A DNA stretch of 64,000 bases from an uncultured Flavobacteriales bacterium (GTDB taxonomy: Bacteria > Bacteroidota > Bacteroidia > Flavobacteriales > Schleiferiaceae), in the NCBI GenBank assembly GCA_943787925.1, contig CALSOH010000003.1:166431-230430 (forward strand), read 5' to 3'. This document shows positions 44,103 through 51,389 of this stretch, one piece after another. Below the pieces are notes generated by a model. The model was not told the DNA's origin. It made no database searches and was given only the letters and a program-made list of their open reading frames with translations. The position numbers were made by a program, and so were the translations under genes. The stretch's first letter is position 1; each line of letters starts with the position of its first letter.

Positions 44103-44177
44103 GGGCAATTAGCTCAGTTGGTTTAGAGCATCGCCTTGACAGGGCGGGGGTCACAGGTTCGAATCCTGTATTGCCCA
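44103..44177 (+). tRNA. tRNA-Val (anticodon GAC)
   Basis: GGGCAAT/ATTGCCC acceptor stem, D arm GCTCAGTTGGTTTAGAGC, anticodon loop TTGACAG, T arm ACAGGTTCGAATCCTGT. Confidence 0.9.
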
Positions 44178-44184
44178 CAACGCA

Positions 44185-44213
44185 CCCGGCGCTGAAAAGC
44201 GCCGGGTTTTTTT
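44185..44213 (+). terminator. rho-independent terminator after tRNA-Val
   Basis: CCCGGCGC-TGAAAA-GCGCCGGG followed by T7. Confidence 0.8.
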
Positions 44214-44322: not shown

Positions 44323-44375
44323 AATCCTGTATTGCCCACCAACGAACCCGGCGCTAAAAAGCGCTGGGTTTTTTT
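44323..44375 (+). repeat. direct repeat copy of the tRNA-Val 3' end plus its terminator
   Basis: AATCCTGTATTGCCCACCAACGAACCCGGCGCTAAAAAGCGCTGGGTTTTTTT is almost identical to 44162-44213. Confidence 0.85.
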
Positions 44376-44397: not shown

Positions 44398-44664
44398 ATG
44401 ACCTTGGACCTCTTTTTTCAGATCCTTCCATGGGCCCTACCGGTGTTGGCGTTGGTTTGGATGGCTAGCTTGAATCCCACAAGCCGTTTTGCCCAGAAAT
44501 ATGGCATCAATCTGCGGCCCGTCTACTGTCCAAATTGTGGGAAGAAGCAATCACGCGTTCGGGCACCCAAGGACAATGAAGAGGCTATGTTCGGGGGATG
44601 GACCTGCTCGGCATGTGGAACCCGCATGAATAAATACGGGCAGAAAAAAGACGGCAAGGGGTAA
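44398..44664 (+). CDS. small membrane-anchored zinc-ribbon protein (hypothetical)
   Basis: N-terminal TM helix, then CPNCG ... CSACG (a 4-Cys ribbon). Confidence 0.45.
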   Translation: MTLDLFFQILPWALPVLALVWMASLNPTSRFAQKYGINLRPVYCPNCGKKQSRVRAPKDNEEAMFGGWTCSACGTRMNKYGQKKDGKG

Positions 44665-44698: not shown

Positions 44699-45420
44699 AT
44701 GCCCCACATTCTTCACGCCATTTCTGGTCCGCGTAACATTAGCACGGCGTTGCTGTATGCGTTTGCGCAGCGACCAGGCTGCCAGGTGGTGGATGAGCCC
44801 TTTTATGGACCCTTTTTGGAGCGCACCGGATTGGGCCATCCGGGCCGAAGGGAGATCCTAGCAGCGGTTCCCCGGACAGCGGGAGATGCGGCCGAGGCGA
44901 TGCGCAGGCTTTTTGAGAAGCACCCCGGGGAGATTTACCTGAAAAATATGGCCCACCACATGGTGGACATGCCCTGGGACTGGGCGTCGGAGGCGGCGCA
45001 TATTTTTTGGATTCGGCACCCGAGGAAGGTAATTCGGTCCTTCGCCAAAGTGTGGCCACAGGTGACCTTGGAAGACATTGGCATCCATGAACAAGTGGCG
45101 CAATGGGCCAAAATCCAGGCTTTTTCAGGCCCGAAAATCTTGGTGGACAGCGATGAAATGCTCGCGAATCCAGCAGAGACCTTCCCCAAAATTTGTGCGG
45201 CGCTAGGCATACCTTCCATGCGGAAATGCTTCAATGGCCTGCGGGCCCCAAGCCCTACGATGGCCCTTGGTGGCCGCATTGGTACAGCCAGGTGCATGCG
45301 AGTACGGGATTTGGTCCGGCAAATGCACTTGGAGAACCCTTAACGGGCCGCTATGCCGAGGTGGAAGCCGAAGCGCTGCCCTACTATGAAACCTTATACT
45401 CACACCGTTTAGCTCTTTGA
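44699..45420 (+). pseudogene. sulfotransferase-like P-loop protein (one frameshift near 45205)
   Basis: GPRNISTAL (5'-PSB-like loop) and IRHPRKVIRS (3'-PB-like motif). The C-terminal part (WPAGPKPYDGPWWPHWY ...) lies in ORF 45193-45420. Confidence 0.55.
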
Positions 45421-45421
45421 T

Positions 45422-46321
45422 ATGCTACAATCCTACGATCCCCGAAATGCCGAAATCCAAGTTTGGGTAGGCGATGGCCTGGTGCCGCGCGACCAGGCCA
45501 AAGTGTCCGTTTTTGACAGCGCCGTTCAGGGCGGCGATGCCGTTTGGGAAGGGATGCGCGTCTACCAGGAGGGCGTCCTTTGCTTGGACCGCCATTTGGA
45601 TCGCTTGATGGATTCGGCCCAAGCGATGGCCTTTGCCCACATTCCCAGCCGCGAATTCATCACGGATGCGATTAAGGCGACCTTGAAGGCGAATGGGATG
45701 ACGCATGATACGCACATTCGGCTCACGCTGACGCGCGGTGAAAAAATCACCTCGGGCATGGATCCTCGCCTAAACCAAAAAGGCTGCACTCTCATTGTGC
45801 TGGCCGAATGGAAGCCGCCCGTCTACGACAACGCCAAAGGGGTTCGCATCGTGACCTCGGCCATTCGCCGCAACAGCCCCATGCACGTGGATTCTAAAAT
45901 TCACCACAACAATCTGATCAACAATATCTTGGCTAAGATTCAGGCCAATCATGCTGGCGTGGACGATGCCTTGATGCTCGACAATTTGGGCTTTATCGCG
46001 GAGATGAATGGGACCAATATTTTCATGGTGAAAGACGGCGTTTTGCTCACCCCGCACGCCGATGCCTGCCTGCATGGAATTACCCGGGCGCTCGTGATCG
46101 AACTAGCCGCCGAGCTCGGCATTCGATGTGTGGAGCGCAACCTGAGCCTGACCGAACTCTACGCCGCCGACGAAGCCTTTGGAACTGGTTCTATGGGCGA
46201 ATTGACTCCCGTCGTGGAAGTGGATGGACGCGTGCTCCAAAACCGCCGCGGTTCCAACGTCACGCAGCAGTTGACCGAGGCCTTCCACCGCTTGGCGGGC
46301 CGCTACAGCACCGCCTTGTAG
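45422..46321 (+). CDS. class IV (branched-chain / D-amino-acid) aminotransferase family protein
   Basis: 299 aa with fold-type IV PLP enzyme patterns (VFDSAVQGGDAVWEGMRVY, AEMNGTNIFMV, GITR). Starts 1 nt after the upstream gene. Confidence 0.82.
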   Translation: MLQSYDPRNAEIQVWVGDGLVPRDQAKVSVFDSAVQGGDAVWEGMRVYQEGVLCLDRHLDRLMDSAQAMAFAHIPSREFITDAIKATLKANGMTHDTHIRLTLTRGEKITSGMDPRLNQKGCTLIVLAEWKPPVYDNAKGVRIVTSAIRRNSPMHVDSKIHHNNLINNILAKIQANHAGVDDALMLDNLGFIAEMNGTNIFMVKDGVLLTPHADACLHGITRALVIELAAELGIRCVERNLSLTELYAADEAFGTGSMGELTPVVEVDGRVLQNRRGSNVTQQLTEAFHRLAGRYSTAL

Positions 46322-46323
46322 CA

Positions 46324-46755
46324 CTACTTTATTCGGATATCTAGCGCCTTCACATGGGCCATGGTGGCGACCATCAATTCTTCTAACACGGCCAAATCCA
46401 CATCAGCGAGTTTGTTGATGTACAAGCACCCTGCTCCGGTTTTGTGCTTGCCCAATCGGTCTAAGTACGCCCCGAACTGCTCCAGCCCCCCCAAACAGAG
46501 GTAGAGGGAAAGGGAGGTTTTTCGAGGGGAAAAGCCCAGCAAGAACCAATCCCCTTCGCGGCCGGTGGCATAGCGGTAGCGCATGTCGCCGTAGCCGACG
46601 ATGCTGGCCCCCCACATGCGTCCTGGATGGCCCGAAATTCGCTGCATCATGGCATGCACCTGCAGGGCATCTTCGCGGCGACCGGCGTGCGCCATGGCCC
46701 CCAAAAATTCTGTGACGGGCAGGGTAGTAGGTTGCGTTTTATTCTCTTGCGCCAT
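46324..46755 (-). CDS. DUF1801 (YdhG-like) domain protein
   Basis: 143 aa with the pattern MWGASIVGYG ... LGFSPRKTSLSLYL ... GAGCLYINKLADVD. Confidence 0.7.
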   Translation of the reverse strand: MAQENKTQPTTLPVTEFLGAMAHAGRREDALQVHAMMQRISGHPGRMWGASIVGYGDMRYRYATGREGDWFLLGFSPRKTSLSLYLCLGGLEQFGAYLDRLGKHKTGAGCLYINKLADVDLAVLEELMVATMAHVKALDIRIK

Positions 46756-46759
46756 GGCG

Positions 46760-48001
46760 TTAGTTCAGCATTCCGGCCGCAACCGTGGCACCGGACGTTT
46801 CGTCGACGAGAATAAATGAACCGGTAATGCGATTTTGGCGGTAGGCGTCCATGACCAAGGGCTTGGTTGTTTTCAGCTGTACTTGCGAAATGCTGTTGGT
46901 GCTGAGCGGACCTTCAGGCGCCTGGAATTCCAAGGCGAGGATGTCCAATACCCCATCTACCTGACTGATCATCGCCCGCGCATCGGCACTCCCATGGCGG
47001 ATGATGTACTTGGCTCCGGGGCGTTGCGCCTGGTTGTCCAGCCAGCACAAGGTGGCTTGGGGGCTTGATTCAAGGCGCGGCGCGGCCCCCGCCACGAGGG
47101 TGTCTCCCCGGGAAATGTCGACGTCTTCGGTCAAGGTAATGGCTACCGATTGGCCGGTGTGGGCTACCGTCAAGGAGGTGTCCCCGAGGAGGATTTGGTC
47201 CACATGGCTTTGTAGTCCAGAAGGCTGAACGCTAACCACATCCCCTACGCGGATCTGACCCGAAGCCACGCGCCCGGCGTATCCTCGAAAATCATGGTGG
47301 GCATCGGAGTGGGGCCGAATCACCGTCTGAACCGGGAAGCGGAAATCGCTCGTGGCTTCTGGGCGTGCCACTTCCACTGTCTCCAGATGGCGAAGCAAGG
47401 TCGGCCCCGCATACCAAGGCATGTGGGGGCTTGGGTCGACGACATTGTCGCCCAAGAGGGCCGAAATGGGGATAAATGCGACGTGCTGAAGGCCTGCAGC
47501 CGCTTGGACCGAGGCATAGGTTTCGACAATGGCTTGGTAGGCTTCCTCGGAAAAGTCCACCAAATCCATTTTGTTGATGCAAACCATGATATTGGGAATC
47601 CCCAATAGACCGGCCAAAAAGCTGTGTCGGCGGGTCTGCTCCACCACGCCATGGCGGGCGTCCACCAAAATCAGCGCCGCATCCGCCGTGGAGGCCCCCG
47701 TCACCATGTTGCGGGTGTACTGGATGTGGCCCGGGGTATCCGCGATGATAAACTTGCGGGCTGGCGTGGCAAAATACCGGTAGGCCACGTCAATGGTGAT
47801 GCCCTGCTCGCGCTCGTCTTTCAAGCCGTCGGTCAAGAGGCTAAAATCGATGCGCTCCAAGCCCTTGCGCTGAGAGCTTTTTTCGACCGCTTCCATTTGG
47901 TCGATGAAGACGCTTTTGGAGTCAAAAAGCAAGCGGCCAATGAGGGTGGATTTTCCGTCATCGACGGAGCCAGCCGTGGTAAATCGTAGTAGGTTCATCA
48001 T
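46760..48001 (-). CDS. cysN: sulfate adenylyltransferase subunit 1 (GTPase)
   Basis: GSVDDGKST G1 motif, DTPGH, NKMD. 413 aa. Confidence 0.93.
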   Translation of the reverse strand: MMNLLRFTTAGSVDDGKSTLIGRLLFDSKSVFIDQMEAVEKSSQRKGLERIDFSLLTDGLKDEREQGITIDVAYRYFATPARKFIIADTPGHIQYTRNMVTGASTADAALILVDARHGVVEQTRRHSFLAGLLGIPNIMVCINKMDLVDFSEEAYQAIVETYASVQAAAGLQHVAFIPISALLGDNVVDPSPHMPWYAGPTLLRHLETVEVARPEATSDFRFPVQTVIRPHSDAHHDFRGYAGRVASGQIRVGDVVSVQPSGLQSHVDQILLGDTSLTVAHTGQSVAITLTEDVDISRGDTLVAGAAPRLESSPQATLCWLDNQAQRPGAKYIIRHGSADARAMISQVDGVLDILALEFQAPEGPLSTNSISQVQLKTTKPLVMDAYRQNRITGSFILVDETSGATVAAGMLN

Positions 48002-48012
48002 CGTATCAGGGC

Positions 48013-48909
48013 TTAGAAATAGCCTTCTTTTTTGCGTTCTTCCATGGCGTTCTCGCTGCGCTTATCGTCCTCGCGGTTGCCGCGTTCTGTTTGGCGGGAG
48101 GTTTCGATTTCGCGGATCACATCGTCCAATTCGGAGGCGTGGGATTCAAGTCCCCCGGTAATTGTGATGTCACCCAGGGTGCGGAAGCGCACCATTTTTT
48201 CTTGGGGCACTTCGGTGGGGCGCAGGGTGATAAAATCGCTGACAGGAATCCAGGAATTGCTGCGCCAAATGACCTGCCGAGGGCGGGCAAAGTAGAGCTC
48301 GGGAAGCTCGATGTTTTCGCGTCGGATATAGTGCCAAACATCCATCTCCGTCCAGTTGGAAATAGGGAAAACGCGGAAGTGCTCGCCTGGGCGCTTTTTG
48401 CCGTTGAAGAGGTTCCAGAGTTCGGGGCGTTGGTTCTTGGGGTCCCATTGGCCAAAATCGTCGCGGTGGCTGAAGAAGCGCTCTTTGGCACGGGCCTTTT
48501 CCTCGTCGCGGCGTGCACCCCCCATCAAGCAGTCAAATTGGTGGGCTTCAATGGTTTCCAAAAGCGTAGTCGTTTGCAAACGGTTGCGATTCGCTGCCAT
48601 GCCTGTCTCCTCTTGGACGCTACCGCGGTCGATCGAGTTTTGGACCAGCCCAACAATCAGGCGGGTGTGCATTTTCTCGACAAAGGCGTCGCGGAAAGCG
48701 ATGGCCTCCGGAAAATTATGTCCGGTGTCGACGTGTACCAGGGGAAAAGGGAGGTTGGCGGGAGCAAAGGCTTTTCGGGCCAAATGGCTCACCACAATAG
48801 AGTCTTTGCCCCCCGAAAAGAGGATGCCCGGATTTTCGAATTGCGCATAGACCTCGCGAATGATGTACATCGCTTCGGCCTCCAATTCATCGAGATGGTC
48901 GTAAATCAT
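48013..48909 (-). CDS. cysD: sulfate adenylyltransferase subunit 2
   Basis: [22 protein letters not shown] (PP-loop). Start ATG overlaps the cysC stop (ATGA). Confidence 0.93.
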
Positions 48910-49493
48910 GAGTGTAAAAATGCAAGGATGGTTTGACGGCATTCCGTCAAAGAGTTCAGATCCGTCCGCACGTGGACGTCGGGCTGTGCAGGGGCTTCAA
49001 AAGGGGAGGAGATGCCCGTGAAATCTGGGATTAAGCCTTGACGCGCCTTGGCGTATAAGCCCTTGACGTCACGGGATTCGCAGACCTCCAGGGGGCAGTC
49101 TACGTAGATTTCGACAAATCGCTCCGTGCCGACGATGCTGCGTGCTTTTTCGCGGTCCGCGGCGAAAGGGCTCACGAAGGCGGTCAAAACGATGAGGCCG
49201 GCGTCAGCCATGAGTTTAGCTACCTCGGCTACCCGGCGAATGTTTTCCGTACGGTCCGCCTCGCTGAAGCCGAGGTCTCCATTGAGGCCATGTCGTAGGT
49301 TGTCTCCGTCGAGCAAGAAGGTGTGGCGGCCTTGGGCATGAAGCTGTACTTCGAGATCGTTGGCGAGGGTGCTTTTGCCGCTGCCGCTCAGCCCCGTGAA
49401 CCAAAGGACTTGCCCTCGTTGGCCCAGGGCTTTTTCGCGGTTAGAAGGCCCAATTTGGTATGATTGTCGTACGACGTGTTCGGAGGATTTCAT
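48906..49493 (-). CDS. cysC: adenylyl-sulfate (APS) kinase
   Basis: [12 protein letters not shown]-loop, [16 protein letters not shown]. Confidence 0.93.
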
Positions 49494-49496
49494 GGC

Positions 49497-51242
49497 TTAC
49501 AGGAAAAATAAATACGTGAGAATAACCACGGAATAAATCAACGTAATCCAGGCCCCAAAACGCAGGTAATCCCGCGATTGGTAGGCCCCTGGACCCATGA
49601 CCATGAGGTTGGTTTGGTAGCCGAAGGGTGTTAAAAACGCGTTGGAGGCCCCAAAGGCCAGAGCGAGGAAGCCGTGCAGGGCACTGAGTTCGGGCTGGCT
49701 AGTGATGCATACAGCGACCACGGGGAACATGAGGGCAACAGCCGCCACATTGGTCATCAAGTTGGTCAGGACCGTGGTGACTCCGAAGATGAGGAACACC
49801 CAAGTAAAGGCAGAAAGAGACGTGGCGGCGGGGAGGAGGACAAAAAGGTCATCCATCAGTCCCGAGGCCATCAAGGCTTTGGAAAATCCAAGGGCACACA
49901 TCAAAATGACCATGAGTTCCCAATCCAGGGATTTTTTGAAGTCCCCCCATCCGAGCCATCCCACCGCGGCTAAAGTCCCTGCAAATCCTAGGAGCATGGT
50001 CAAAAAATCTACCTGTCCTAGGGCGTAGCTCGCGGCAAAACCCAAAATGCCGAGGGCGAGAATTCCTCGTTTGGCAGGGGTCAAGGGTTGAAGAGGGGCT
50101 TGGGTTGTCAAGCTATATACATGCTTGGAATCGGCCATCAGTTCGTCGTGGCGCGCACCTGCAATGAGTAGAAGTAAGTCCCCCGCTTGTAGGATAATGT
50201 CCCCAATTCGACCCTGCATACGCTCACCGCGGCGATGTACCGCAACGATGGCGGCATCATAGCGCTGGCGGAACTGGGAGCCGCGCACTTGGGCCCCGAC
50301 CAAATCGCTACCGGGTGGGATCATCACTTCAACCAAGGCGGAATTCGCCGCACCTTGGGTCAGTTCCTCTTGTGGAAGGGCTAGCCCCGAATTGGAGCGG
50401 GTCAGGTCGCGCACGGCATCCAGGGCACCCGCAAAAAACAGCCGGTCACCCCCCTCCAGGATTTCTGTGGGGCTGACCGGGGCGATGAGGCGTTGGCCGC
50501 GAACGATTTCGACTAAAAAGAGGCCATGGACTTGCCGGAGGCCGGCTTCTTGGACGGATTTGCCCGTGAAGGGGCTCTGCGTTAAGACGCGAGTCTCCAC
50601 GGTGTATTCGCGGGACTTTTCTGCACTTTCTACAGCGTGTTTTGGGAGAAAACGCCCCGCCAAGCCTGCCATGGCGAGTACCCCGACCATCACAACACCA
50701 AGGCCGGGAAGGAGGTAATCCGTTGTATGTAAAATTTTCAAGCCGTTCTCCTCCAGCAGGCCGTTGAGAACCAAGTTGGTGGAGGTACCAATGACGGTGA
50801 GCATTCCGCCGAGGGTGGCGGCAAAGGCCAAGGGCATGAGGTAGGTCGATGGGGACTGCCGATTGCGAATCGCCCATTGACGAACAGGTCCCATGAGTAG
50901 GGCCACCACGGCCGTGTTATTGAGCACCGCGGACAAGAGTGCGGTAGGGGTCAAAATGCGAAGCAAAAAGCCACGAGGGGTGGCGTGCTGCGTCCAACGT
51001 TGCAGGGCTTGGGCCAACCCGAGCCGAGATTGCACGGCCCCCGCCAAAATCATCAAAAGAAAGAGGATCAGGAGGGACGGCGTAGTGAGGGTCCCGAGGA
51101 GTTCAGATGCGGAGGTATAGCCAAATAGGACGAGAAACAAACCACCCGCCCCAAAGGCGTGTACGGGCTTGATGCGCTTGGAAAAAAGCGCCAAAACTAC
51201 CGTGCCATAAACGCAGAGTAAAAGGATGTGGGCCGTTTGCAT
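49497..51242 (-). CDS. SLC13/DASS-family anion permease with two central TrkA-C domains (putative sulfate transporter)
   Basis: Multi-TM halves flank two TrkA-C-like domains. First gene of the cysC-cysD-cysN operon. ATG at 51242 preferred over TTG at 51251. TATCTTTG box (minus strand) at 51249-51256. Confidence 0.8.
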   Translation of the reverse strand: MQTAHILLLCVYGTVVLALFSKRIKPVHAFGAGGLFLVLFGYTSASELLGTLTTPSLLILFLLMILAGAVQSRLGLAQALQRWTQHATPRGFLLRILTPTALLSAVLNNTAVVALLMGPVRQWAIRNRQSPSTYLMPLAFAATLGGMLTVIGTSTNLVLNGLLEENGLKILHTTDYLLPGLGVVMVGVLAMAGLAGRFLPKHAVESAEKSREYTVETRVLTQSPFTGKSVQEAGLRQVHGLFLVEIVRGQRLIAPVSPTEILEGGDRLFFAGALDAVRDLTRSNSGLALPQEELTQGAANSALVEVMIPPGSDLVGAQVRGSQFRQRYDAAIVAVHRRGERMQGRIGDIILQAGDLLLLIAGARHDELMADSKHVYSLTTQAPLQPLTPAKRGILALGILGFAASYALGQVDFLTMLLGFAGTLAAVGWLGWGDFKKSLDWELMVILMCALGFSKALMASGLMDDLFVLLPAATSLSAFTWVFLIFGVTTVLTNLMTNVAAVALMFPVVAVCITSQPELSALHGFLALAFGASNAFLTPFGYQTNLMVMGPGAYQSRDYLRFGAWITLIYSVVILTYLFFL

Positions 51243-51389
51243 GGTTGGCAAAGATATAATATCCTACTAAAATGGTAGGAATTAAATGGCGAGGCATTTC
51301 TACTGGCCTTTCTCCGAGTGTCAGCTGCCCATTATCGAACGGAGTGGGAGGACTTGTTTGGCCCTTATAGCCCCCGTACCTTCGGATCT

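Follow-up and report, generated by a model that had tools for sequence, protein, structure and literature searches.

A lysine-less fold-type IV protein paired with a Sulfotransfer_5 sulfotransferase: a proposed two-part sulfation module

Two adjacent genes in the window, that is, the whole stretch of 64,000 nucleotides analysed here, make up an uncharacterised two-part sulfation module that is widely mis-annotated as a branched-chain aminotransferase. Gene 1 encodes a predicted sulfotransferase; gene 2 encodes a protein related to class IV aminotransferases in which a histidine occupies the position of the Schiff-base lysine. We consider the chances about even that each gene supplies one half of a single conserved enzyme module. 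The sulfotransferase would move a sulfo group from PAPS to a small acceptor, probably anionic and resembling an amino, keto or hydroxy acid, and the partner, presumably incapable of lysine-based ping-pong transamination, would bind this acceptor or convert it further. The features of the pair are as follows:

44699-45420, + strand: gene 1, predicted sulfotransferase, 240 codons (Pfam PF19798, Sulfotransfer_5)
44699..45214, + strand: N-terminal 172 codons of the sulfotransferase, in the frame of 44699 (PF19798 positions 5-163)
45213..45214, + strand: frame break, one base missing in a short run of C; reading continues in the -1 frame
45214..45420, + strand: C-terminal 68 codons of the sulfotransferase, in the frame of 45193 (PF19798 positions 163-223)
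45422..46321, + strand: gene 2, fold-type IV (class IV aminotransferase-like) protein of the His-type, 299 aa (PF01063, Aminotran_4)

The sulfotransferase and its pairing with gene 2

Gene 1 is spread over two open reading frames in the assembly. The first (44699..45343, 214 aa) matches PF19798 at profile positions 5-163 (E 3.7e-36, 125.1 bits) and the second, in another frame (45193..45420), at positions 163-223 (E 1.3e-9, 38.2 bits), both exceeding the gathering threshold of 23.2 bits. The two frames match consecutive stretches of the profile and therefore represent a single gene of 240 codons. Once they are joined, a repair foreseen in the original prediction, the product is 93% identical over 240 aa to the orthologue P0001. 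The PAPS-binding-like motifs on which the prediction of a sulfotransferase-like gene was founded, GPRNISTAL (residues 10-18) and IRHPRKVIRS (residues 105-114), are present and fall on family-invariant columns. The N-terminal part holds the 5'-phosphosulfate loop (SGPRNISTA), the DEP motif with E33, K82/H87, and the 3'-phosphate motif R106-P108-S114. Among 27 diverse PF19798 members S9, P11, R12, N13, S15 and T16 as well as R106, P108 and S114 are invariant, and all of them are present in gene 1; the columns of E33, K82 and H87 are likewise invariant in the alignment of the family. The C-terminal part carries the family motif W-P-x-G-P-K-P-Y-D-G-P-W-W-P-H-W-Y. The AF2 model of P0001 (pLDDT 95.8) has a sulfotransferase fold: the top 18 matches of a Foldseek search against the PDB are all sulfotransferases, the best being CurM ST (E 3.4e-8), OLS ST, TPST2 and Stf0. 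The signature for PAPS binding and catalysis is complete, and gene 1 can be assigned to the sulfotransferases, with an activity predicted from motifs and modelled fold.

The sulfotransferase domains of CurM and OLS (PDB 4gbm and 4gox) are the best PDB matches of gene 1 in both sequence and fold, with an identity of 16-18% and a TM-score of 0.55-0.59. They share with gene 1 the phosphosulfate loop P-R-x-x-S-T, the 3'-phosphate motif R-H-P-x-x-V-I-x-S and, following strand 2, an acidic residue (E33 in gene 1). Both are polyketide synthase domains whose substrates are carrier-bound beta-hydroxyacyl chains; a thioesterase comes next, and sulfation makes the leaving group for the next domain. The Sulfotransfer_5 protein, in contrast, is either free-standing or fused to a fold-type IV domain, and its C-terminal motif W-x-x-G-x-K-x-x-D-G-x-W is found in the Sulfotransfer_5 family only.

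The stop codon of gene 1 (TGA, 45418-45420) and the ATG of gene 2 (45422) are separated by a 1-nt spacer, as the original prediction had it, and the tight coupling of the pair is conserved. Within a set of 61 genomes of the family, the sulfotransferase is found in 29 and the partner in 27 of those, the other two being contig-end cases, whereas the partner occurs in none of the 32 sulfotransferase-negative genomes (Fisher p about 3e-15, uncorrected for phylogeny). The sulfotransferase precedes the partner in all Flavobacteriales loci and follows it in Marinicella and other Gammaproteobacteria; both gene orders are found across three phyla. The genes are also adjacent in Actinobacteria and other Bacteroidota, every partner being devoid of the lysine, and two Rhodobacterales with a lone sulfotransferase harbor a partner with Asn at the lysine position elsewhere in the genome, unlinked. 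The plant fusion named in the original prediction is real: both domains, Sulfotransfer_5 followed by Aminotran_4, lie on one chain in Chlorella sorokiniana (P0126), in the stramenopile Ochromonadaceae CCMP2298 (P0131) and in the plant Zygophyllum (Zb1G011066; PMC13725701). Eight further proteins besides P0126 and P0131 carry both domains. A protein of 1449 aa that combines PDZ and guanylate-kinase repeats with both domains (P0170) was judged to be a merged eukaryotic gene model and left out. The Arabidopsis BCAT-like proteins presumably belong to the eukaryotic fusions as well. Gene 2 is the obligate partner of gene 1: the two are inherited together and coupled in translation, and they have been fused repeatedly. 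The AF2 model of one fused protein (pTM 0.52) has no confident inter-domain interface.

The flanks of the pair differ between clades, and a search of them across clades for a conserved third gene found none. Neighbouring genes include a PlsC-like acyltransferase in two lineages and an SDR epimerase, SulP, and PALP together with EamA in one lineage each. Literature searches on PF19798, the plant BCAT-like proteins and At5g27410/At3g05190 returned domain listings and omics tables only, with a function never reported; they yielded no biochemically characterised PF19798 member, and an acceptor, product or cofactor is reported for none.

The lysine-less partner

Gene 2 matches PF01063 (E 9e-51, 173 bits, cut-off 28.5), which upholds the predicted fold-type IV. 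It does not look like a normal class IV enzyme, however: it falls below the cut-offs of all 23 NCBIfam models, BCAT equivalogs included, and its His161 sits on the column of the Schiff-base lysine (K160 of E. coli IlvE) in three independent alignments (HMMER to the BCAT 5cm0 and to PDB 7z79/9j32, MAFFT, and hmmalign of 150 representatives). In the HMMER alignment to 5cm0, H161 is placed on the catalytic lysine and the flanking anchors AIRRN and NNILAK are ungapped. The canonical short BCATs (Geoglobus acetivorans 5cm0; E. coli IlvE) have the fold of gene 2 and about 40% identity to it. The roles of the residues concerned, namely the Schiff-base lysine, Glu194, the phosphate cup R60/T222/T258, Tyr165 and Tyr96, are described for BCATs in PMC9309667. 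Gene 2 retains the pyridine-N Glu194, the phosphate-cup Arg61 (in HLDRL), the equivalent of Arg98, GITR and TG(S/T), here TGS, in common with the BCATs. Unlike them, it has Leu165 for the PLP-ring Tyr165 and His98 for Tyr96, which binds the substrate carboxylate in BCAT, in addition to the change of Lys to His; further differences are a DxRN motif added at the N-terminus and one residue inserted after K108. Since His161 takes the place of the Schiff-base lysine, classical transamination by the gene 2 protein is unlikely, and the transamination step of the original prediction becomes doubtful in this sense. For the same reason, the name 'branched-chain amino acid aminotransferase' is very unlikely to be correct.

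The substitution is a property of a whole clade. Among the best 150 representatives the lysine column holds His in 75, which include all top matches, Asn in 13 and Lys in 39, and the Lys-bearing members are at most 44% identical to gene 2. Every Sulfotransfer_5-linked partner examined has His or Asn at this column. His-types and Asn-types fall into a single clade (support 0.93), inside which the Asn-type is nested (0.99); the Asn-type subclade comprises plants, Chlorella, Marinicella and the Variovorax protein 7z79. Residues conserved specifically in the lysine-less clade are DxRN, W42, K108, K131 and N196, all of which gene 2 has. The phosphate-binding Arg and the GITR and TGT motifs are common to both types. 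The Asn-type has lost His161 along with the pyridine-N Glu and the ring Tyr, yet partnership and fusions persist, and the shared function may thus not need B6 chemistry.

The closest solved structure to gene 2 is a Variovorax paradoxus protein named 'Aminotransferase, class 4' (PDB 7z79 and its variant 9j32; E 1e-58). This protein is a member of the lysine-less clade and has the DxRN N-terminus and the equivalents of W42, K108, K131 and N196 in common with gene 2, from which it differs in having Asn at the lysine position and Ser for the pyridine-N Glu. The fusions of stramenopiles and other marine eukaryotes are His-type like gene 2 and 56-65% identical to it, whereas Chlorella-type fusions are Asn-type.

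Possible functions of the pair and the frame break in gene 1

The mechanism we prefer, tentatively and as a possibility that falls short of probable, is one in which PLP or PMP is bound by the His-type partner without a covalent link and His161 serves as acid/base. Glu194 and the phosphate cup would be retained for holding the cofactor, and sulfation would serve the reaction of the partner by providing either a good leaving group or an electrophilic donor of the sulfo group. The model for this is provided by ColD and E1, PMP-dependent sugar dehydratases in which His replaces the Schiff-base lysine; their cofactor is bound non-covalently, and the base that drives the elimination of a beta-substituent is the His. 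ColD and E1 are fold-type I enzymes with nucleotide-4-keto sugars as substrates, and the analogy is one of logic only, not of homology. A bifunctional enzyme of a new kind, to which we assign a small probability, would unite a PAPS sulfotransferase with a His-based fold-IV B6 domain that has no lysine. It might use sulfate as the leaving group of a PMP/His elimination or replacement, or might use PAPS to sulfonate a B6-stabilised carbon nucleophile; in a concrete version, a PAPS-dependent route would start from an enamine derived from serine or pyruvate and yield sulfopyruvate or cysteate. To our knowledge, the activity 'PAPS:2-aminoacrylate C-sulfotransferase' of the old literature was never cloned, and a literature search for this orphan enzyme gave nothing relevant.

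The partner could instead be a catalytically dead pseudo-aminotransferase that acts only as an oligomerisation scaffold, acceptor-binding or regulatory subunit in a single sulfo-transfer step. We regard this as rather unlikely, although it has to be weighed seriously. The loss of the Schiff-base lysine throughout the clade speaks for it, as does the nested Asn-type, which keeps its partnership and fusions with the pyridine-N Glu and ring Tyr gone; the phosphate-binding Arg, GITR and TGT of both types could hold the sulfate or phosphate of a ligand. It also fits the existence in the PDB, next to 7z79, of 9j32, which is the same protein with Lys at the lysine column. The rate of evolution points the other way, the partner being under strong constraint and 78-98% identical where the sulfotransferase is 52-94% identical (79% versus 53% between Flavobacteriales clades), and so does the identity between bacterial partners and eukaryotic fusions given above. 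In His-type members, moreover, the column of H161 never varies and that of H162 hardly does, Glu194 is kept, and the polar residues specific to the clade are conserved. Slow evolution combined with such invariant and conserved residues fits an active site better than a scaffold.

A different question is whether the module works in this strain at all. As assembled, gene 1 is truncated at 214 aa and contains 42 wrong residues. The break, originally placed near 45205, is real in the assembly but lies at about 45213-45214: gaps in blastn alignments against four relatives (L004, L005, L006 and L007) reveal the missing base, and in tblastn the two frames abut at residue 172/173. That the gene is a recent pseudogene, leaving the module non-functional here, is unlikely. 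This reading has on its side the one-base deletion itself and the fact that, among the 29 family genomes carrying the gene, the present one is the only one in which it is split. Set against it are the C-terminal 68 codons, which in the shifted frame are free of stops and still about 85-91% identical to orthologues, and the intact state of both the partner gene and the PAPS operon. Compared with all four relatives, the window has single-base indels at 17 or more sites, which cluster in two patches (31.8-32.1 kb and 42.3-45.2 kb); a conserved gene of 1044 aa contains 3 of them over a span of 330 nt, and a gene of 360 aa about 12. They are mostly insertions of non-repeated (non-homopolymer) bases, an error-like spectrum. 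The orthologues, of 240 aa, are unbroken in 28 of the 28 other family genomes that have the gene. Because of these indels and the unbroken copies, the frameshift is taken as an artefact; judged from the sequence, it is probably an assembly error and not an inactivation, and the module is therefore probably functional in the organism. A programmed frameshift was ruled out, since 45208-45216 contains no slippery heptamer and the orthologues are all single ORFs.

We note that the partner might also, in line with the original prediction, be an ordinary class IV aminotransferase with a PLP-lysine, acting on a keto and an amino acid and leaving its product to be sulfonated by the sulfotransferase. 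The strong match to PF01063, the ilvE_I score close to its cut-off (234.9 versus 245.55 bits) and the retained equivalent of R98, Glu194 and phosphate cup are in keeping with this, and K159, two residues upstream of H161, is a Lys in most His-type members. However, Arg takes the place of K159 in some His-type members, and the Asn-type varies at this position; all 75 close relatives have His on the lysine column, and the alignment runs ungapped from one anchor to the other; Tyr165 and Tyr96 are both replaced, and the NCBIfam cut-offs are missed throughout (the best-scoring model, PRK08320, gives 254 versus 363), which leaves the reading quite improbable. Lastly, an incidental adjacency, with gene 2 a housekeeping branched-chain aminotransferase unrelated to gene 1, would agree with the database names of the homologues but is extremely improbable: both the phylogenetic profile and the existence of fusions refute such an IlvE role, the catalytic lysine is missing, and a separate bona fide ilvE_II lies elsewhere in the genome (C1:337776-338489, 329 bits versus a cut-off of 250).

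PAPS supply and significance

The genes convergent with the pair are:

46324..46755, - strand: DUF1801 protein, last gene of the PAPS operon (PF08818 E 2.7e-10)
46760..48001, - strand: cysN, sulfate adenylyltransferase large subunit (TIGR02034 531 bits versus 336)
48013..48942, - strand: cysD, sulfate adenylyltransferase small subunit (NF003587 447 bits versus 195)
48906..49493, - strand: cysC, APS kinase, which makes PAPS (PF01583 E 7e-69; TIGR00455 256 bits versus 139)
49497..51251, - strand: DASS/SLC13-type anion permease with two TrkA-C domains (PF03600 E 1.5e-44, PF02080 E 2e-23)

The end of the DUF1801 gene (46324) and the stop of gene 2 (46321) lie 2 nt apart, so that the convergent arrangement is as first described. 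The PAPS-making operon, too, is confirmed: cysN, cysD and cysC each exceed at least one curated NCBIfam cut-off and share one direction of transcription, and the permease, syntenic with cysCDN in two relatives (L003 and L006), is presumed from this context to be a putative sulfate importer. The proposed link of the pair to the operon holds as regards the supply of PAPS; the adjacency is conserved only in the closest relatives, within the genus, and not in other Flavobacteriales or Gammaproteobacteria. One actinobacterial pair adjoins a SulP sulfate transporter. Searches of the whole genome (99.2% complete) for a PAPS/APS reductase (CysH) with PF01507 (PAPS_reduct) gave cysD alone, and those for a sulfite reductase with PF01077 (NIR_SIR) gave no match; PAPS in this genome can therefore only feed sulfation. 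Three other sulfotransferase genes of the genome (Sulfotransfer_3) could equally consume it. APS kinase is present in 56 of the 61 family genomes, and its co-occurrence is for this reason uninformative on a PAPS dependence of the pair.

The two-part protein is found in marine Flavobacteriales, Gammaproteobacteria, Alphaproteobacteria, Actinobacteria, green algae, stramenopiles and land plants. With the strict tie between a lysine-less partner and a PAPS sulfotransferase, what was a curiosity of annotation becomes a problem that enzymology can test, and in the split version of the bacteria the two proteins to be handled are small and soluble. For streamlined marine bacteria able to make PAPS but unable to reduce it, the module offers a candidate source for a sulfated or sulfonated metabolite, which would belong to the organic sulfur pool of the ocean. 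The bifunctional sulfonation route, if true, would constitute a sulfite-independent path to sulfonates in a genome unable to reduce PAPS.

The gene pair and the frame break

The locus comprises a sulfotransferase gene and its aminotransferase-like partner and, convergent with both, an operon for the synthesis of PAPS that ends in a DUF1801 gene:

44699-45343, plus strand: first ORF of the sulfotransferase gene, 214 codons (PF19798, Sulfotransfer_5, profile positions 5-163, E 3.7e-36)
45193-45420, plus strand: second ORF of the sulfotransferase gene, in another frame (PF19798, profile positions 163-223, E 1.3e-9)
45422-46321, plus strand: partner, 299 codons (PF01063, Aminotran_4, E 9e-51)
upstream of the DUF1801 gene, minus strand: cysN, cysD, cysC and a DASS/TrkA-C permease gene (ORF list and profile searches)

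The first two ORFs match successive stretches of PF19798 and are therefore a single gene of 240 codons, broken at about 45213-45214. Its stop (45418-45420) precedes the ATG of the partner by one base, the DUF1801 gene ends two bases past the partner stop, and cysN, cysD and cysC each exceed at least one NCBIfam cut-off. The original prediction had described these domains, the 1-nt spacer, the 2-nt gap and the convergent operon accurately; the frame break it reported near 45205 exists, but lies about 8 nt from that position.

Relative to four related loci (L004-L007), the window is one base short in a run of C at 45213. Read across the break, as had been proposed, the gene encodes a protein that along its whole length shares 93% identity with P0001, an unbroken protein of 240 aa, and 76-79% with further proteins from Cryomorphaceae and Schleiferiaceae MAGs. 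At least 17 further single-base indels in the window are absent from all four relatives. The sites include:

31819, 32055 and 32149: three insertions in a 330-nt stretch of a 1044-aa gene, relative to L004-L007
42295: one single-base indel, relative to L004-L007
42581-43396: about a dozen indels in a 360-aa gene, relative to L004-L007
44177: one-base deletion at the 3' end of tRNA-Val GAC (44103-44178)

Three of the breaks in these patches fall in the 1044-aa gene, one in a 212-aa gene and about twelve in the 360-aa gene. The tRNA reads ...GCCCA-CA in the window and ...GCCCACCA in all relatives, a deletion in a run of C and of the same kind as that in the sulfotransferase gene. Because most indels are inserted bases that extend no repeat and are grouped in patches, their spectrum resembles uncorrected long-read error rather than mutation. 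The sulfotransferase gene is present in 29 of 61 genomes of the family and is split in two only in that of the window. We infer that the break is an assembly artefact; a real pseudogene, truly inactivated in this genome, is unlikely.

Three codons ahead of the partner stop, the window carries one extra base (46311) relative to L005 and L006, which turns the C-terminus ...STPI into ...STAL and places the stop 2 nt from the DUF1801 gene; either an indel error like the others or a true difference could account for it. Two near-identical, GC-rich hairpins that resemble terminators (ACCCGGCGCT-loop-AGCGCCGGGT ahead of a T run) lie 160 nt apart at 44184-44207 and 44344-44371. They are flanked by tRNA-Val on one side and, on the other, by the gene for a small zinc-ribbon protein (44398-44664), which is kept upstream of the pair in close relatives.

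Sulfotransferase fold and lysine-less partner

An alignment of 27 diverse sulfotransferase homologues shows an invariant phosphosulfate loop (S9, P11, R12, N13, S15, T16), 3'-phosphate motif (R106-P108-S114) and family-specific C-terminal motif (W180, D188-G189, W191, W195-Y196), together with D32-E33-P34, K82 and H87. The AlphaFold model derived from it, of very high confidence (pLDDT 95.8, pTM 0.92), best matches the CurM and OLS 'activating' sulfotransferase domains, tyrosylprotein sulfotransferases and Stf0 in the PDB, with TM-scores of only 0.45-0.59; the only, weak, sequence match is the CurM sulfotransferase. No close relative with a solved structure was found, nor an assay of one in the searched literature. 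With PF19798 on both halves and these fold matches, the gene encodes a genuine sulfotransferase-fold protein, as first proposed.

The partner remains below the cut-off in all 23 NCBIfam models matched. Among solved structures, PDB 7z79 (Variovorax 'Aminotransferase, class 4', E 1e-58) is closest to it, and archaeal BCATs come next. In a HMMER alignment to the BCAT 5cm0, ungapped from the conserved anchor AIRRN to the anchor NNILAK, the catalytic lysine (...NIKSLNYLNN...) corresponds to His161 (...SKIHHNNLINN...); MAFFT with two lysine-bearing paralogues of the same genome gives the same register. The column holds Asn in 7z79 and Lys in 9j32, the same protein. Among the best 150 representatives out of 1.8 billion proteins, 75, including all top matches, have His, 13 have Asn, and 39 have Lys, each of the latter at most 44% identical to the partner. 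With residue roles taken from PMC9309667, His-type proteins retain the pyridine-nitrogen Glu and the phosphate cup, while Leu replaces Tyr165 and His replaces Tyr96; in the Asn-type the Glu is also gone. Both types share a set of derived residues: an N-terminal DxRN, W42, K108 with a one-residue insertion, K131 and N196, all of which canonical enzymes lack. FastTree groups both types as one clade (support 0.93), inside which the Asn-type forms a subclade (0.99); this topology suggests that Lys first gave way to His, and His then to Asn. Elsewhere the genome has a true ilvE_II and a gene resembling PabC. Judged by these residues, the partner is not a normal aminotransferase.

Co-inheritance, fusions and PAPS supply

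In every informative Flavobacteriales locus the sulfotransferase gene comes first and the partner follows after 1-13 nt. Marinicella and other Gammaproteobacteria have the partner first, and the two genes overlap slightly. In answer to the proposed check for a conserved neighbourhood, the adjacency recurs in further Bacteroidota and in Actinobacteria, and every adjacent partner is lysine-less. Within the family, 27 of the 29 sulfotransferase-positive genomes carry the partner orthologue beside it (the other two are contig-end cases), and none was found in the 32 negative genomes (Fisher p about 3e-15, 61 genomes, uncorrected for phylogeny). Two Rhodobacterales with a lone sulfotransferase gene possess an unlinked Asn-type partner. 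The partner is better conserved than the sulfotransferase (78-98% versus 52-94% identity for the same genome pairs). Ten long proteins, among them those of Chlorella sorokiniana and of the stramenopile Ochromonadaceae CCMP2298, carry Sulfotransfer_5 followed by Aminotran_4 in a single chain, and a plant fusion, of the kind named in the original prediction, is reported in PMC13725701. Another genome of the same genus (L035:1014-2567, G047) has an in-frame 517-aa ORF in which Sulfotransfer_5, without its last helix or the invariant Tyr230, runs straight into the His-type partner; this represents either a fusion in a bacterium or the result of a deletion or of misassembly. In G044 and G054 (same family, genus g6) the order is reversed and the partner only 40-41% identical to that of the window, which suggests that this family has gained another version of the module by horizontal transfer. 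Co-occurrence, adjacency and fusions together show that the pair is one unit.

The proposed link to the PAPS operon holds in the window and its closest relatives, but not beyond: the pair adjoins the permease-cysC-cysD-cysN operon only in its own genus (L003, L006, L007 and G014, with a partial view in L004), and this was seen neither in the next Flavobacteriales clade nor elsewhere among the loci compared. A whole-genome search of the window's genome (99.2% complete) found cysD as the sole PAPS_reduct-family gene, hence no PAPS/APS reductase, and likewise found no sulfite reductase (NIR_SIR), although the sulfate-to-PAPS operon is complete. Since both reductases are missing, its PAPS has no assimilatory outlet and must serve sulfation. 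Further users could be three Sulfotransfer_3 genes elsewhere in the genome:

C3:266978-267670, Sulfotransfer_3
C1:108616-109263, Sulfotransfer_3
C2:265780-266322, Sulfotransfer_3

In an actinobacterial Ornithinimicrobium MAG (L051:5066-9102), a partner-sulfotransferase pair with a 4-nt overlap lies beside a SulP-family sulfate transporter.

No third conserved gene pointing to a pathway was found in the neighbourhoods compared. At one locus (L050:342-1412, P0124) Sulfotransfer_5 is fused to a FlK-type hotdog thioesterase, a layout reminiscent of the CurM ST-TE; an Asn-type partner gene precedes it, and two AMP-binding enzymes, a carrier protein, a DapB-like reductase and an acyl-CoA dehydrogenase follow. 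In a Bacteroidota locus (L047:2612-9130) the pair is translationally coupled to an NAD-dependent epimerase/dehydratase (SDR), with a glyoxalase-fold gene after it and a divergent sulfatase upstream.

Possible function of the module

A PAPS-type sulfotransferase and a lysine-less fold-type IV protein are thus co-inherited, often fused and predicted to be expressed together, in a cell whose PAPS is available only for sulfation. The sulfotransferase would sulfonate a small acceptor, which the partner may bind or convert. We tentatively prefer, as one possibility among several, that the His-type binds PLP or PMP without a covalent link and uses His161 as acid/base, as in the PMP dehydratases ColD and E1, which also have His in place of Lys; sulfation would supply a leaving group or a sulfo donor. 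Somewhat less probable is that the partner has lost all catalysis and acts as a scaffold or binding subunit, a reading favoured by the Asn-type lineages, because the B6-binding Glu is lost there too. An AF2 model of a fused protein (pTM 0.52) defined no interface. The classical transamination of the original prediction is improbable, as the partner, with His161 at the lysine column and no NCBIfam cut-off reached, is probably incapable of it.

The Sulfotransfer_5 and Aminotran_4 architecture is already catalogued, one lysine-less member already has a deposited structure, and the pair in the window represents a module that is widespread, with nothing unusual about this copy. The searched literature nowhere combines three findings made here: the partner of the sulfotransferase is systematically lysine-less, in a His and an Asn type; it is strictly co-inherited with Sulfotransfer_5; and the PAPS supply of this organism has no reductive sink.
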